Source of the DNA: Candidatus Parcubacteria bacterium | Lineage (GTDB): Bacteria; Patescibacteriota; Minisyncoccia; Phycocordibacterales; CAIZLB01 | DNA: 64,000 nt | Reading direction: 5' to 3' | Assembly: GCA_043760135.1 (NCBI GenBank) | Contig: JAYUPL010000014.1 | Coordinates: 25,347 to 89,346, forward strand | In this document: positions 503 to 58,820 of the stretch, one piece after another | Numbering within the stretch: the stretch's first letter is position 1 | Layout: the number at the start of each line of letters is the position of its first letter | The notes under the pieces: generated by a model | The model's database searches: none | Told to the model about the DNA's origin: nothing | The model's input: only the letters and a program-made list of their open reading frames with translations | Position numbers and translations under genes: made by a program

Positions 503-1420
503 ATGAAAACGCTAGTTATGCTTGCTGTGCTCCTTGGAGCGTTCTTAAATGTCTCCGTCAGGGCTAAAGCCGCCGAAATGCAACTTTGGATGTCTGTGTC
601 GCCTCCCAACCCAATCGTTGGGAAAATCGTAACAGTGTCCATCACGTCTTCTGGGGGTGATAATCCCCACCAATACGTTTGGAACTCCTCCAATCCGACT
701 GAGACCCCTCAGCTCTACAACTGGACGGCACCCTACCCATATGCAACAACGAAGACCATGAGCTTTGTTTACACCACCACCGGAGGGAAGTCGATTACGG
801 TCGCCGCCGCCAGTGGCAACCAGCAGATAGTTAGAACTCTCTATTTCAACGTTGTTGGAGGTAAGATGAGTCCTAATGGCGGCGATATATGGGTCTCAGC
901 CTCACCTCCTAATCCAATTGTTGGAGAAACCGTGACGGTCTCCGTCACATCTTCGTCGGGAGGTACCAAATCCACTAAAACCGCAACGTTTATTTACAAC
1001 GCTGCTGGAACTAAGTTTGTCAACGTTACCTCTCCTAGCGGGATTAGCAGAACCCTTTCCTTCGACGTTGTTGAAGGCAGGATCACTCTAATCACCCCTA
1101 ACGGCGGTGAAGTTTGGGAGGTCGGTAAGACTTACCAAATTCAGTGGATCACAGAAGGCAACGTCCCTTTCGTCCAGATTGGACTCTGGGATGATCGTTA
1201 CAACAGCGAAGTTGGTAGTAATGGCGAAGAATTGATCGCTTTTTCAACCACCAACACAGGTTGGTTCAACTATGAGGTTCCACCAGCTCGTGCTGACGGA
1301 ATCTCCGCTGGAAATCTTGGTGGTCAGAACTACAAAGTCTCTGTTCAGGGCTTCAATCCCTGCTTCGGTGGACTCTCGGCCGGGAAGTTCACAATAAAAC
1401 TCCCAGTTCTTCAGTTCTGA
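503..1420 (+). CDS. secreted repeat protein with two Ig-like SPPNPIVG..TVTVS.TSS repeats and a Kre9/KNH-like motif (ITLITPNGGEVWEVGKTYQIQW); GC-rich outlier
   Basis: Signal peptide MKTLVMLAVLLGAFLNVSVRAKA and internal protein repeats. Local GC is near 50% against a ~30% background. Confidence 0.6.
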   Translation: MKTLVMLAVLLGAFLNVSVRAKAAEMQLWMSVSPPNPIVGKIVTVSITSSGGDNPHQYVWNSSNPTETPQLYNWTAPYPYATTKTMSFVYTTTGGKSITVAAASGNQQIVRTLYFNVVGGKMSPNGGDIWVSASPPNPIVGETVTVSVTSSSGGTKSTKTATFIYNAAGTKFVNVTSPSGISRTLSFDVVEGRITLITPNGGEVWEVGKTYQIQWITEGNVPFVQIGLWDDRYNSEVGSNGEELIAFSTTNTGWFNYEVPPARADGISAGNLGGQNYKVSVQGFNPCFGGLSAGKFTIKLPVLQF

Positions 1421-35302: not shown

Positions 35303-35375
35303 GTGCTCCCGTTAGGAATCGAACCTAAATTTACAGTTCCGCAAACTATTGTCCTATCCATTGAACGACGAGAGC
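35303..35375 (-). tRNA. tRNA-Arg (anticodon GCG by manual folding)
   Basis: Acceptor gctctcg/cgggagc, D-arm gttc-aatggata-ggac, anticodon arm atagt-ttGCGga-actgt, T-arm ttagg-ttcgatt-cctaa. No encoded CCA. Confidence 0.65.
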
Positions 35376-40411: not shown

Positions 40412-40815
40412 AAAAATCCCGGAGTGCATACTGTGAGGTATGATCTGGGATTTTGGTGTGGTTGTGTTTTTAAATCGGAACATTAATCCTAATTTCACCT
40501 GTCTTGGTTTTTTGCTTTTTGCCTTTGATGTTTAGAATTGCTAGGGTTTTGTTGAAATGGTTTAATACCGATTGCGTAGGCTTTCTGGGTGGGGTGATTA
40601 TGAACTCGACAGTATTCTTGCGTAAAATGATTCTTGTTTTCATTGGGGTTAGGGTTTGACCTATAAAAATTACCACAGAATATGATGCTTGTAAACCGAC
40701 ACTTAGGAATATTGTAATAAACCAATATGTATAAACGTATAATTTAGTATAAACTTATTCTTGTTGAGGTTCGTGTCCAGGGTATTAGTTTTTGTGGTAG
40801 AATATTTTTAAACCT

Positions 40816-41669: not shown

Positions 41670-42254
41670 ATGGACATGCAAACAATAAAAATAATGATAT
41701 ATGTGGTTATTGGCGGTGCAATATTATTTACATTATTTAGAAAACTCGGCTCAATTAAAAGAAAATGTGCAGTGTGTGAAGCAGAAACTTCAGATTCCTA
41801 TGTAGATTCTTCAGGAAAAATGTTTAATTTATGTAGAACCCATTTAACTGACAGGTGGAAAACTGATGTGGTATCATCAAGTAATACAATGGTTGTAATA
41901 GAACCTGATCTCGAGGATAAAAATCATGCCAGGGGGTACATGTATGCTGACATTGCTCAACTAGGTTTATGGCAATATGGAAAACCTGCCCAGGAGAATA
42001 TATCTAAATATTTAGATCTTATAAAGGATAAATCCTGTGAAAAATGCGGTAATGCAGCCAGTGTGGCTTACCTTAAGAAAGAAGATTATGAGATACCTGT
42101 AATGGAAAAAATATCAGCTACTCCACAATATCTTTGTAAAAATTGTATGATAAAAAAAGTTGCGCCAATGATTGTTGGCTCACAGCACAGTTTTTATGAA
42201 GGGGTGTATGCACCTACGTCAGAGAATGGTGTTTATCATTCACAGGAGTTTTAA
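41670..42254 (+). CDS. hypothetical TM protein with two CxxC zinc-ribbon-like pairs
   Basis: CAVCEAE...CRTHL and CEKCGN...CKNC. A terminator hairpin aaaatcc-cactta-aggatttt follows. Confidence 0.4.
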   Translation: MDMQTIKIMIYVVIGGAILFTLFRKLGSIKRKCAVCEAETSDSYVDSSGKMFNLCRTHLTDRWKTDVVSSSNTMVVIEPDLEDKNHARGYMYADIAQLGLWQYGKPAQENISKYLDLIKDKSCEKCGNAASVAYLKKEDYEIPVMEKISATPQYLCKNCMIKKVAPMIVGSQHSFYEGVYAPTSENGVYHSQEF

Positions 42255-42862
42255 AATCTATACAAAATAAAATCCCACTTAAGGATTTTTTATTTTTAAT
42301 AGTCATGCGGTTTAACTATACATCTTCCGAAGGCTATTTTTATTTCGATCATAAGTCGATGCTTTTTGCCTCATTGATGTCTTCGTTAAACATTCGATTG
42401 TGTTTCCTGGTCAACTACGCCGAGGGGGATGGTATTGGATCTGTCCTTTATCCAAATTATTGTATCTGTATATATACTTATTTAACAAATTCATATATCT
42501 ACGTTATTGTTATAGTAATAATTAACAAATAATTTTTTCGATACTACAACATACTTATATATACGTAAGATGAAGTGCTATTTATTACAATAAATAGTAA
42601 AAGATGACTCGTCCTTTAGTTTAAGTTTAAAAATAAAGGTTTTGTAAGTTTTAAAAGACATAAACATATTTTAAAGACAGGTTGATTGGGGTTTGTTTAC
42701 TATTTCTTTCTGTTGAGAAGAAAGGGAGAAAGGAAAATTATCCCGAAAATTATATACAGCAAAGGTTTAGATTCTTGTCCTGACCGGGCAAAGACAGCGC
42801 CTAAAAAGGATAAATATAAACCATTCTTCCCAGGTGTCTTTCATAGCGGTATTGTAGCATTT

Positions 42863-43360
42863 TTACCTAAACTCAGGACTTATATAACTATAAGACAAAT
42901 TGTTGTATTCATCAGTTGGATACACACAGACACCCTGGTCGTGCCATAAGACAAATTCTTTAACTCCAGTATCAGGTGCAAAGCGGCTACATACAGTGCA
43001 AAGTGGTTCTCCTGATTTTGTTATATTATTTTCTTTATCAACTCTTGTAAAATATAAGGTTGAACCGTTTATCTTGTCTGGATTTCTTTTTGTGGCATCA
43101 AGTATTGCTCTCCATTCAGCATGCATGCAGCAAGTTTGATCATATCCAGGTTTTCCTTGTGTATTTTTTTCTTTGAGACAGTAGTTATGGTCCATGTTAT
43201 CGAGTGGGGGACCATTGTATCCTTCACCGATTATGTTCCCATCTTTGACTATGATACTTCCACACTTTGCTTTAAGACACAGAGCTTTTTGTGCAACTTT
43301 GGCTGCTTCATGCATCCAGTTGATTGCATTGGTTTCTTCTTGGTTTTGGAAGTATTTCAT
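42863..43360 (-). CDS. divergent cytidine/deoxycytidylate-deaminase-fold protein
   Basis: CMHAEWRAI (H-A-E zinc ligand) and PLCTVCSRF (CxxC). This is additional to the canonical ComEB at 57169. Confidence 0.55.
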   Translation of the reverse strand: MKYFQNQEETNAINWMHEAAKVAQKALCLKAKCGSIIVKDGNIIGEGYNGPPLDNMDHNYCLKEKNTQGKPGYDQTCCMHAEWRAILDATKRNPDKINGSTLYFTRVDKENNITKSGEPLCTVCSRFAPDTGVKEFVLWHDQGVCVYPTDEYNNLSYSYISPEFR

Positions 43361-43436
43361 ATTTTGATTTTAGCATAAAAATAAAACAGGTTAGAGAGTT
43401 GGAGGCTCTCTAACCTGAGTGAAGTGTTGGCAGCTG

Positions 43437-43973
43437 CTATTTTCCGATCAACTCATCAACAGCTACTTGGATTTTTTTGGTGATATAGATTGAAACGTTA
43501 GGATCACCATCGTTAGCATGTCCAGGACCTGGTAGGTTGAGGAATTTTTCGTAGCGCAGGTATCTTCCTTGATATGCCACCTCTCCACCGCACCGGTTGA
43601 TAATAGGTTGTCCGTATTCCGGATCATACACATCAGAAAATCCGAAGGCGGTCAGCAAATCTTCCAAAGAAAGCCAGATGGTTCCACTGCTGAAGGATTG
43701 GGTAGAATGATTGATTTTATAAGTTAAAAGCCAACCATCAGGTTCTCGGGCAAGTCCGGTGAGATCCTTTGTGATGGCGATTTCCACCGCACTTGAACCA
43801 AGGAGTAGTGTTTTCCGTACTGAGTTGGCGTCGTTGAACCCAATCCAATCGATTTTTGAGCCGTGGTGATGGAACCAGTCGGGAATACCCAACCCTCTTT
43901 GGAAGATCGGTTTAATTATTGGTGTTGTTTGTTTCATCAGTGTATCTTGTTGAAGTTTCTGTCTTTTGTACAA
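43437..43973 (-). CDS. hypothetical protein, GC-rich outlier
   Basis: 178 aa with GC near 45-47%. Directly upstream of the divergent deaminase on the same strand. Confidence 0.4.
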   Translation of the reverse strand: MYKRQKLQQDTLMKQTTPIIKPIFQRGLGIPDWFHHHGSKIDWIGFNDANSVRKTLLLGSSAVEIAITKDLTGLAREPDGWLLTYKINHSTQSFSSGTIWLSLEDLLTAFGFSDVYDPEYGQPIINRCGGEVAYQGRYLRYEKFLNLPGPGHANDGDPNVSIYITKKIQVAVDELIGK

Positions 43974-44103
43974 TATATGAAAATTTGGTAGGTGTAAATA
44001 GGGATGATTGGGTCCTTATATTATGACCTTTGTGGTTACAGGACCAGTATATCTTTCGAATCTCACCCGCAAGCCGAACTGTCGGCTTGCTCTCCATCTA
44101 ATG

Positions 44104-44136
44104 AAAAACAGATGTCTTTAAAAGACATCTGTTTTT
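44104..44136. terminator. palindromic hairpin aaaaacagatgtctttt/aaaagacatctgttttt
   Basis: 15-bp perfect palindrome with A/T runs, adjacent to the 3' end of tRNA-Ser. Confidence 0.55.
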
Positions 44137-44141
44137 CCTAG

Positions 44142-44228
44142 CGGAGGAGGTGAGATTCGAACTCACGGGACCCGTTAGAGCCCTCTTGTTTTCAAGACAA
44201 GCGCATTCGACCTCTCTGCCACTCCTCC
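44142..44228 (-). tRNA. tRNA-Ser (anticodon TGA), class II with long variable arm
   Basis: Reverse complement ggaggag-tg-gcagagaggtcgaatgcgc-ttgtc-ttTGAaa-acaag-agggctctaacgggtccc-gtgag-ttcgaat-ctcac-ctcctcc-g closely matches bacterial tRNA-Ser(UGA). Confidence 0.8.
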
Positions 44229-46077: not shown

Positions 46078-46605
46078 ATGCTCTTCTTAATTACAAAAAA
46101 ACAAAAAGATAAAATACTTGACGAATATCACGGAAATCTAATATATATCTTTACTATAAGTTTGGTTGTTTTATTTGTAATATTTTTGATTTCACTTTTT
46201 CCATCTTATTTAACAATGAGAGTGGATAGACAAATACTTACAGATAAAATAGCTCCTCTGCAACTTCGGATAGATTATTATAAAGCAGAAAGTGAAAAGA
46301 ATAATACGGCAGGTATAAATGATGATATATCTATCCTAAGTTTAAATCCTAAAAAAGATACTGTTGCTATCTACAAAGAAATAAAAAATATTTATCAAGA
46401 GATTCCAAATCTTCAGATTACAAGTATAAGTGTAGATAGTTTGTCTAAAAAAGTTACCGTAATAGCAAATATTGATAATAAAAATACAGCCAACTTGCTG
46501 GTTGATAAATTAAATTCTACACGGTATAAAGGTGCTGATCTGCCATACTCAGTATTTAGTGAAAGTAAAAATTTTACATTTAGTCAAACATTAACTTATG
46601 AATAA
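46078..46605 (+). CDS. PilN-like bitopic membrane protein
   Basis: Single N-terminal TM after a short cytoplasmic segment. Position directly after the pilM-like gene. Confidence 0.35.
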   Translation: MLFLITKKQKDKILDEYHGNLIYIFTISLVVLFVIFLISLFPSYLTMRVDRQILTDKIAPLQLRIDYYKAESEKNNTAGINDDISILSLNPKKDTVAIYKEIKNIYQEIPNLQITSISVDSLSKKVTVIANIDNKNTANLLVDKLNSTRYKGADLPYSVFSESKNFTFSQTLTYE

Positions 46606-57168: not shown

Positions 57169-57687
57169 ATGGCTACTAAAAAAGTATCAACTATTCAAAT
57201 TAAAAAAGAACCCGTACAAGTTCTGAGACCATCTTGGGACGAATATTTTATGGAGCTTGTGGAAACAACAGGACATCGAGCAACTTGCAACAGAGGGAGA
57301 TCGGGATGTGTGATTGTAAAAGATAAAAGAATTTTAACTACAGGGTATGTAGGATCTCCTATGGGGGCGAAACATTGTGATGAAGTTGGACATGAGATGC
57401 ATAAAGTAACGCATGATGATGGTACAGAAACGATGCATTGCATCAGAACGATTCATGCAGAACAAAATGCATTGATACAAGCATCACGTGTTGGAGTATC
57501 ACTTCAAGGTTCAACTTTATATTGTACAATGACACCATGTTATACCTGTGCGAAGTTAATTATTAACGCCGGTATTATTCGTGTTGTTGCAAAGCAAGAT
57601 TATCAGTCAGCACTTCAAACAAAAAGAATTTTCAAAGAGACAAAGGTGAAGCTTGAGATACAAGATAAAAATATTACAAAATATTAA
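57169..57687 (+). CDS. comEB: dCMP deaminase (ComEB-type)
   Basis: HAEQNAL and PCYTCAKLI zinc-binding motifs. Confidence 0.8.
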   Translation: MATKKVSTIQIKKEPVQVLRPSWDEYFMELVETTGHRATCNRGRSGCVIVKDKRILTTGYVGSPMGAKHCDEVGHEMHKVTHDDGTETMHCIRTIHAEQNALIQASRVGVSLQGSTLYCTMTPCYTCAKLIINAGIIRVVAKQDYQSALQTKRIFKETKVKLEIQDKNITKY

Positions 57688-57698
57688 TTTTTAAATAT

Positions 57699-58124
57699 AT
57701 GCAATTAAAATTTAAAAAAATTCATCCTAATGCAAAAATACCAAGTTATGCTTATACAGGGGATGCAGGTTTGGATTTATATATTCCAGAAGATTTACTT
57801 TTTAAAAAAAAAGAAAGAAAATCGATTGCTCTTGGAATAGCTATTGAGATACCTGAGGGATATGTAGGAATATTGTTTGATAAAAGTGGATTGTCACACA
57901 AACATGGTTTAAAAAGTTATGGTGGTATTATCGATTCTGGATATAGAGGAGAGGTTCATGTAGGTATGATGAATTTGTCAGATAAGGATTATGAATTTAA
58001 GGCAGGAGATAAGATTATACAGATACTAATCATGCCGGTTCTTCAGGCTCAGGTTGTTGAGTGTGAACAATTGTCAGAATCAGATCGAGGTGAGGGGGCA
58101 TTTGGTAGTAGTGGAAATAAATAA
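57699..58124 (+). CDS. dut: dUTP diphosphatase
   Basis: AYTGDAGLDLY and IDSGYRGEV. Confidence 0.9.
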   Translation: MQLKFKKIHPNAKIPSYAYTGDAGLDLYIPEDLLFKKKERKSIALGIAIEIPEGYVGILFDKSGLSHKHGLKSYGGIIDSGYRGEVHVGMMNLSDKDYEFKAGDKIIQILIMPVLQAQVVECEQLSESDRGEGAFGSSGNK

Positions 58125-58139
58125 AAATAAAACATATAC

Positions 58140-58820
58140 ATGACAAAATCAATACACATTGCAATAGAAGGAACGGACTGTTCAGGAAAAGCCACTCAGA
58201 CACAAAAATTAAAAGAAAGATTTGTAGCTTCAGGTGCACCAACTGAAGTCTTTGCATTCCCAAGATACGGAGAGCCTGCATGTGTATTAGTTGAAAAATA
58301 TTTGCATGGAGAATATGGTACTGCTGTTGAAGTTGGCCCATTTGCAGGTTCGATGTTTTATGCAGCTGATAGATATGATGCCTCATTTGCTATTAGAAAA
58401 AATCTGGACGCAGGAACAAACGTTATTTGTGATAGATTTACATCTTCAAACATGGGGCATCAAGCAGGGAAGATTGATGATCTAACTGAACGAGATGCAT
58501 ATCTTGAATGGTTGGATAATCTAGAGTTTAAACTTTTAAATATTCCAAGACCAGATAAAATAGTTTTTTTGTATGTACACCCTGAGATCAGTCAAAAACT
58601 TATGGCAGAGCGTGCTGATAAAGATTATTTGAAAGGAAAGAAAAAAGATATTCATGAAGCAGACATGGATCACTTAATGAAGGCATCAAATGCGTTTTTA
58701 TATGTAGCGAAGAAATATAATTGGATTGTGATTGATTGTGCACCGGAGGGTGAGCTTTTGAGTATTGATACCATACATGAGATGGTGTGGAAAGGGGTGA
58801 ATTCAAGAATGCGTAGTTGA
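58140..58820 (+). CDS. tmk: thymidylate kinase
   Basis: P-loop IAIEGTDCSGKATQ, DRFTSSNMGHQ and lid region. Confidence 0.75.
   Translation: MTKSIHIAIEGTDCSGKATQTQKLKERFVASGAPTEVFAFPRYGEPACVLVEKYLHGEYGTAVEVGPFAGSMFYAADRYDASFAIRKNLDAGTNVICDRFTSSNMGHQAGKIDDLTERDAYLEWLDNLEFKLLNIPRPDKIVFLYVHPEISQKLMAERADKDYLKGKKKDIHEADMDHLMKASNAFLYVAKKYNWIVIDCAPEGELLSIDTIHEMVWKGVNSRMRS

Follow-up and report, generated by a model that had tools for sequence, protein, structure and literature searches.

Gene islets inserted at tRNA genes share several features: variation sets in precisely at the 3' end of the tRNA gene, syntenic relatives hold different cargo at the same place, the cargo is atypical in composition, and part of the tRNA 3' end is repeated in direct orientation. 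Among zinc deaminases, the deoxycytidine monophosphate (dCMP) deaminases of family PF00383 (ComEB, T4 Cd, and the enzymes of cyanophage S-TIM5 and S. mutans) combine the zinc-binding motifs HAE and PCxxC with a GYNG-like motif and carry extra Cys or His residues ahead of HAE; the fold and catalytic motifs are common to TadA and ADAT2, and the catalytic motif recurs in the anti-phage deoxycytidine triphosphate (dCTP) deaminases (NF041025; PADLOC dCTPase). Here we examine a locus that bears comparison with both kinds of system, at positions 42,255 to 44,228 of a 64,000-nt stretch of Candidatus Parcubacteria DNA (contig JAYUPL010000014.1; hereafter, the whole stretch is the window). A tRNA-Ser gene, a GC-rich gene of 166 codons and a gene for a zinc deaminase lie here in succession on the minus strand, and an earlier note on this DNA had likened them to a tRNA-associated island carrying a deaminase-based defence or toxin module. 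We conclude that the two protein-coding genes are probably unrelated, separately transcribed, and neighbours by an accident of insertion: a core deaminase gene next to a slot behind tRNA-Ser that holds strain-specific cargo.

The window is a low-GC (34.6%) genome fragment, and its proteins match metagenome-assembled genomes of Paceibacteria/Parcubacteria in the candidate phyla radiation (CPR); all coordinates are those of the window unless a contig is named. The tRNA-Ser(UGA) gene (anticodon tga) was located by ARAGORN and Rfam at 44141-44228 on the minus strand. The GC-rich gene, unk166 (protein P0001), lies at 43437-43937 (minus strand). It had been described as a 178-aa open reading frame (ORF) abutting the tRNA 3' end, of which the GC-richness stands and the rest does not: the longer ORF (43437-43973) begins with TTG, and the start is placed at the ATG at 43937, giving 166 aa, because this is the recorded length of P0001 and because homologues line up with it from their N-termini onward. 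The ATG and the tRNA are 203 nt apart, the interval (43938-44140) being a structured spacer. The deaminase gene (42863-43360, minus strand; protein P0003, 165 aa) was recognized by its match to PF00383. It is, as proposed, additional to a ComEB-like gene (57169-57687) that has dut and tmk as neighbours (ComEB-dut-tmk, 57169-58820): P0003 has the HAE and PxCxxC motifs and is 26% identical to the ComEB-like protein.

Comparison with two syntenic relatives, contigs L004 (Parcubacteria GFS_1662) and L022, delimits the slot. Both hold pilM, a gene with a tRNA-binding domain, ruvX and tRNA-Ser(UGA), and their proteins are 77-91% identical to those of the window. In BLASTN, window positions 46249 to 44141 correspond to L004 1 to 2109, the match ending exactly at the tRNA 3' end, as at tRNA-gene islets, and homology restarts at 43376, 16 nt ahead of the deaminase ATG. 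With L022, homology extends to 44053 and restarts at 43380, 20 nt ahead of the same ATG. Between these points each genome has its own content: 764 bp with the 166-aa gene as the sole ORF in the window, 2009 bp with a RhuM-family gene and small ORFs in L004, and 2088 bp with DoxX, an unnamed ORF and ApbE in L022. Since synteny breaks and resumes in this way around differing cargo, the deaminase serves as a fixed point of reference, and what varies is the slot that follows the tRNA. Judged from the sequences compared, the slot is a tRNA-linked insertion hot spot and the deaminase lies just outside it. The idea of a tRNA-associated variable region is thus borne out by the loss of synteny at the tRNA 3' end, the different cargo of each of the three genomes, the atypical composition of unk166 and a partial tRNA copy in L022. 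Membership of the deaminase in that island is not supported; the gene is kept at the same place in both relatives with other cargo.

The partial copy in L022 spans 36 nt, repeats the tRNA-Ser 3' end in direct orientation, lies 131-165 nt past the tRNA and scores 34 against a null of 18.2 +/- 2.1 (null maximum 27). Positional alignment with L022 points to 44001-44048 (minus strand) as its putative, decayed counterpart in the window. Direct tRNA repeats around the window insert were considered separately and rejected as not significant. The spacer region 43975-44140 folds at -56.5 kcal/mol (z = -7.4). Nearest the tRNA is a perfect hairpin of 17 bp between A and T runs (44103-44137, minus strand; inverted repeat I2), whose pairing is kept in L022 by way of four double changes; it is likely the terminator of the tRNA transcript and could act bidirectionally. 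The next block (44054-44095, minus strand) consists of a second hairpin (44069-44090) and, after it, the motif GAGATTCGAAA, which is invariant; L022 has conserved the block, with compensatory pairs, and it is the sole slot sequence that BLASTN finds in common with L004. Over the window, L022 and L004, pairing in the two hairpins is retained through seven double substitutions; together with GAGATTCGAAA they occupy 44054-44140 (minus strand) in the window, 1913-2003 in L022 and 2190-2262 in L004. There is a 13-nt exact inverse match to the T arm of the tRNA (I16), and the second hairpin with GAGATTCGAAA resembles a degenerate variable arm and T arm of tRNA-Ser. The hairpins and motif may represent a tRNA-derived integration scar, an att site or a small RNA.

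Composition sets the two genes apart. The 56 ORFs of the window have a mean GC of 34.9 +/- 4.4% and a mean GC at third codon positions (GC3) of 28.4 +/- 7.8%. The deaminase gene is ordinary by this standard (GC 37.8%, GC3 30.3%, inside the range of these ORFs), and unk166 is atypical, as the cargo of tRNA-gene islets tends to be: its GC is 44.8%, with 46-47% reached locally over 300 nt, and its GC3 of 43.4% is about 1.9 standard deviations over the mean. Because of this high GC3, and because unk166 is missing from the slot in both syntenic relatives, it was probably acquired horizontally. The gene has what look like transcription signals of its own. Directly upstream of it is a promoter-like site (TTTACA, 17 nt, TATTGT; 43970-43998, minus strand) that agrees with the consensus at 9 of 12 positions, a consensus match only; downstream, a strong predicted intrinsic terminator with a 12-bp stem, six GC pairs and a T run (43387-43417, minus strand; inverted repeat I17 and terminator scan) would end the unk166 transcript ahead of the deaminase.

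We consider it probable that ancestrally, in this lineage, the deaminase gene stood behind tRNA-Ser in the same orientation, and that the interval 3' of the tRNA has been a recurrent insertion site, probably for integrative elements that target tRNA genes and that would have left partial tRNA copies behind. The slot in the window would now hold a single promoter-gene-terminator cassette encoding unk166, and the 608-bp ORF-free stretch on the far side of the deaminase would be a non-functional or unassigned remnant at a rearrangement breakpoint. So understood, the locus would illustrate clearly how the 3' end of a tRNA gene can be a hot spot for insertion in the CPR, whose genomes are reduced, and would indicate that even these genomes keep slots for the turnover of accessory genes. 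The comparison also brings out two widespread protein families, confined to the CPR, that have no assigned function.

Several lines of evidence identify the deaminase as a conserved, vertically inherited core gene of the Paceibacteria lineage. A protein search returned 748 homologues; among the 120 listed, identities are about 60-78% and lengths about 160-170 aa, and the named sources are Paceibacterota, Parcubacteria or Ryanbacteria. Identity within the family is 55-79% over hundreds of metagenomic loci, and the gene was found at 213 metagenome loci as against one IMG/VR contig. In L004 and L022 the deaminase shares 74-75% identity with its counterpart in the window, a divergence close to that of the flanking core genes (RuvX 77-81%, PilM 80-91%). 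Part of the outcome that the earlier note had named as fatal to its proposal was therefore found: the deaminase is conserved and native in composition, yet it is an orthologue of neither ComEB nor TadA. Nothing on this deaminase family was found in the literature. Six nucleotides ahead of the deaminase ATG lies an extended -10-like sequence, TGCTAAAAT (43367-43375, minus strand; read from the sequence), and since no Shine-Dalgarno sequence is evident there, the mRNA may be leaderless, with TGCTAAAAT as a candidate promoter element.

By its sequence, P0003 is a cytosolic zinc hydrolytic enzyme of the cytidine deaminase superfamily with a dCMP-deaminase-like architecture. It has the alpha/beta fold of deaminases and matches PF00383 (dCMP_cyt_deam_1) at 1e-12 (48.1 bits, cut-off 25), and the order of its elements is a GYN(G/A)PP motif, extra conserved Cys residues aligned with the additional Cys/His of dCMP deaminases, then HAE and PxCxxC. 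In an alignment of 59 members H80, E82 and C124 are invariant and C121 nearly so, which defines the catalytic zinc site; C28, C33, C61, C77 and C78 are likewise invariant, as are the HAEWRA motif and R84, R106 and R126. Profile searches against solved structures place dCMP deaminases closest (6e-8 to 1e-6), followed by TadA (5e-5), and PHROG 174, a dCMP deaminase, is matched at 6.5e-18. The differences from these enzymes are also clear. P0003 has HAEWRAI where dCMP deaminases have HAExNAL; alignment with the ComEB of the window reveals a 12-residue insertion before PxCTVC, and the invariant R106 and R126 further distinguish it from ComEB, as does the absence of any link to dut or tmk. Scores against curated families fall well below the cut-offs for ComEB (TIGR02571, 26.2 bits vs 219.45) and TadA (NF008113, 19 bits vs 150). 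In the sequence examined, tRNA-Arg(GCG) is encoded in the window (35303-35375), L020, L023 and L102 and tRNA-Arg(ACG) is not seen, which would make a TadA-type A34 deaminase unnecessary; the window itself has only the GCG and TCT tRNA-Arg genes. We infer that the substrate of P0003 is a cytosine nucleotide or nucleoside, used in salvage or pool sanitation alongside the ComEB-dut-tmk route. The identity of the substrate could be relevant to nucleotide salvage in these symbionts.

The neighbourhood of the deaminase gene was surveyed at 73 representative loci for protein-coding neighbours and at 91 loci (L004-L101) for tRNA genes. SecA is directly upstream on the same strand at 25 of the 73 loci, and a SEC-C motif-like coding sequence often ends a few nucleotides ahead of the deaminase ATG. 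NUDIX hydrolases occur nearby in two clusters, each at eight of the 73 loci (overlap between the clusters was not counted out), and Maf at six; strict NUDIX boxes number 2.3 per 100 kb at deaminase loci and none in 170 kb of the window and control loci. The NUDIX and Maf neighbours mildly favour a role in the metabolism of the nucleotide pool. In L023 (900-3400), where the deaminase is 72% identical to that of the window, a 435-aa N6/N4 DNA methylase and small phage-like ORFs lie upstream of the gene, so that mobile DNA again adjoins it.

The survey also bears on whether unk166 and the deaminase act together, either as a two-gene anti-phage system that depletes nucleotides or as a toxin/immunity pair on a tRNA-Ser island. 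We consider this very improbable. The two genes are indeed adjacent, on one strand and near a tRNA, and unk166 is atypical in composition; P0003 gives weak local matches to models of anti-phage dCTP deaminases and exceeds the cut-off of PF14437, MafB19-deam (32.8 bits vs 27). Co-occurrence tells otherwise. A hidden Markov model (HMM) of the unk166 family finds no member in the 91 deaminase loci (580 kb), and the deaminase is absent from all six unk166-family loci, which represent six different neighbourhoods. A terminator separates the genes in the window, and the syntenic relatives retain the deaminase without the partner. The catalytic motif that P0003 has in common with anti-phage dCTP deaminases accounts for a match of about 30 residues around HAE (residues 76-105 only; NF041025, 26.9 bits vs a cut-off of 400), the models being far longer (437 and 630 positions) and P0003 being a conserved core gene. 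Polymorphic-toxin deaminases (MafB19-deam, DddA, SsdA) are C-terminal domains of large secreted toxins accompanied by an immunity gene; P0003 is a standalone protein of 165 aa, and no gene downstream is fit to be an immunity partner. Searches of PADLOC and PHROGs gave unk166 no identity and P0003 only generic deaminase matches, and a viral origin was likewise set aside: IMG/VR holds no match to the unk166 family and one to the deaminase family, and no significant viral fold match was obtained. The proposed deaminase defence or toxin module is thus not supported, and is largely refuted by the census. Differential loss is an alternative for unk166 alone, in which the gene is ancestral at this place and was lost or replaced in the relatives rather than recently inserted. 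The family is widespread in the CPR, identity to the nearest homologue reaches only about 46%, which leaves no donor identifiable, and one member (L104) lies a few kilobases from ComF-PilM in a neighbourhood similar to that of the window. Set against this are the high GC3 of the gene, its self-contained promoter-gene-terminator arrangement, the unrelated cargo in its place in both syntenic relatives, and the tRNA-derived scars at the slot, and we regard differential loss as unlikely.

The tRNA-Ser neighbour calls for an explanation of its own. The 91 deaminase loci contain 25 tRNA genes, and 13 of these are for tRNA-Ser; each of the 13 precedes the deaminase in the same orientation (binomial p ~3e-5, duplicates removed), and this enrichment is a concrete, testable lead. 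The gaps range from 22 to 3196 nt, the large ones containing unrelated genes, and are only 22-97 nt in L015, L024 and L029; five anticodons are represented (UGA, CGA, GGA, GCU and ACU), and the adjacent deaminases are 55-77% identical to one another, save the close pair L047/L049 (93%). This pattern fits an ancestral tRNA-Ser to deaminase adjacency that would have been split repeatedly by insertions. It might alternatively mark the deaminase as an RNA-editing or RNA-modifying enzyme tied to tRNA-Ser, co-transcribed with it and acting on a base common to the Ser isoacceptors. The enrichment, the short gaps and the spread of anticodons among divergent deaminases would all suit such an enzyme, TadA-like in fold and recurrently encoded near tRNA genes, and the invariant R84, R106 and R126 could bind phosphates. 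About 80% of the loci, however, have no nearby tRNA-Ser; SecA is the commoner upstream neighbour; the profile is nearer to dCMP deaminases than to TadA; the tRNA-Ser of the window encodes no unusual base; and ancestral synteny can also explain the adjacency. Editing of A34 to I34 in tRNA-Ser(ACU) was weighed specifically and is unlikely, because AGA still encodes an invariant Arg in those genomes. We therefore judge the tRNA-Ser enzyme improbable, if less so than the defence or toxin pair. Scarcely more likely is a broader proposal: that the deaminase family is non-redundant with dCMP deaminase and has a new substrate, with a functional reason for its recurrent place directly after a co-oriented tRNA-Ser (for example, as an enzyme that edits or modifies that tRNA, or as a deaminase of modified cytosine nucleotides scavenged by the symbionts), and that the 166-aa protein stands for a fold family that is new, made up of accessory proteins of the CPR and carried on tRNA-targeting elements.

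Our preferred reading, of a core deaminase beside an insertion slot, has evidence to answer as well. Within the window alone the tRNA 3'-end repeat is not significant (17 vs a null mean of 16.7), and the slot differs from typical tRNA-gene islets in that this repeat is decayed, the insert is tiny (about 0.7 kb, one gene) and its single ORF, which has no family match, leaves it without an integrase or recombinase. The contigs of the relatives are short, so unk166 could sit elsewhere in those genomes, and its high GC could partly reflect a protein rich in Gly, Pro, His and Asp. The link to tRNA-Ser exceeds chance and could reflect function rather than ancestry. As for the enzyme, P0003 reaches no curated deaminase family, and two of its features are atypical, the HAEWRAI motif and the insertion of 12 residues ahead of PxCTVC; the nucleotide substrate is therefore a guess.

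The unk166 protein belongs to a sizeable family. A word-index search had returned two matches and made the gene look like an orphan, which was misleading: an exhaustive HMM search recovered 538 representatives (388 with values below 1e-10), and a profile search of an indexed database gave 508 clusters, all unnamed or hypothetical and without a Pfam match, their named sources being diverse CPR lineages. A scan of 89 members against Pfam turned up no credible match. Conserved motifs (PxWxHHHGxK, AFG and FLNIPxPGTGHDGDPNxSI, the last given for P0001 as FLNxPGPGxxxDGDPNxSI) run through the family, and the AlphaFold2 (AF2) model is confident (predicted local distance difference test 90.5, predicted template modelling score 0.86). 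The idea that the ORF is spurious and overlies a structured RNA such as tmRNA or RNase P was dismissed, given no Rfam or ARAGORN match, a real family with motifs, and this model. The sequence profile has no link to any solved structure and a search of viral structures gave no match, so the 160-aa family combines a confident predicted structure with no close match among PDB or predicted viral structures. The secondary-structure elements of the 166-aa protein follow one another much as in the double beta4-alpha folds of Whirly, PUR-alpha, MRP1-2 and SsgA; these differ in that scores are low, sequence identity is 5-13% and the His/Asp motifs of the unk166 family have no counterpart there. The conserved His/Asp cluster and the modelled fold, weakly similar to Whirly and PUR, suggest a small metal- or nucleic-acid-binding protein acting alone, which is a low-confidence guess. 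Two of the six other unk166-family loci have tRNA-Arg nearby, and one of these two is surrounded by a region that also has recombinases, Fic and a primase.

Downstream of the deaminase the window departs from its relatives again. L004 and L022 have MarR-MsrB-fasciclin there, and the window has an ORF-free stretch of 608 bp (42255-42862), bounded by the convergent deaminase and unk194 genes, and then unrelated genes; because the downstream content differs, synteny breaks a second time at the 608-bp stretch, of which L004 has only the 42 nt that adjoin the deaminase stop (42821-42862). The stretch had been described as an AT-rich non-coding gap of about 600 bp, and its length and lack of a convincing ORF are confirmed; its AT-richness is mild only (30.4% GC vs 34.6% for the window). 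We found no credible ORF, Rfam match, tandem repeat, pseudogene trace, noncoding RNA or unusual folding energy in it, and the corresponding identities (pseudogene remnant, repeat, noncoding RNA, stable structure) were discarded. The adjoining gene unk194 (41670-42254, plus strand) occurs only in the window's version of this region; its 194-aa product has no family match, contains several CxxC pairs and may be anchored in the membrane by an N-terminal hydrophobic segment.

Some further observations concern tRNA genes and other parts of the window. Genes for tRNA-Ser with anticodon ACT (A34, two-codon box) were found in L038 (1767-1854), L044 (715-804), L047 (1165-1252), L049 (2631-2718) and L071 (78-164), that is, in at least three distinct organisms and each upstream of the deaminase; L047 has a normal tRNA-Ser(GCT) 1 kb further upstream. 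We found nothing in the literature on tRNA-Ser(ACU) in the CPR. Within the window, a second ORF-free stretch of 400 bp (40412-40815), between an HI0933-like gene and an Lnb-domain gene, has a raised GC content of about 37%, a strong excess of T over A and no Rfam match. Finally, the gene at 503-1417 (plus strand) encodes a 305-aa, probably secreted protein with a hydrophobic N-terminus and internal repeats (SPPNPIVG...VTVS); no other gene of the window deviates as strongly in composition (GC 49.7%, GC3 52.5%), and this one may also have been acquired.

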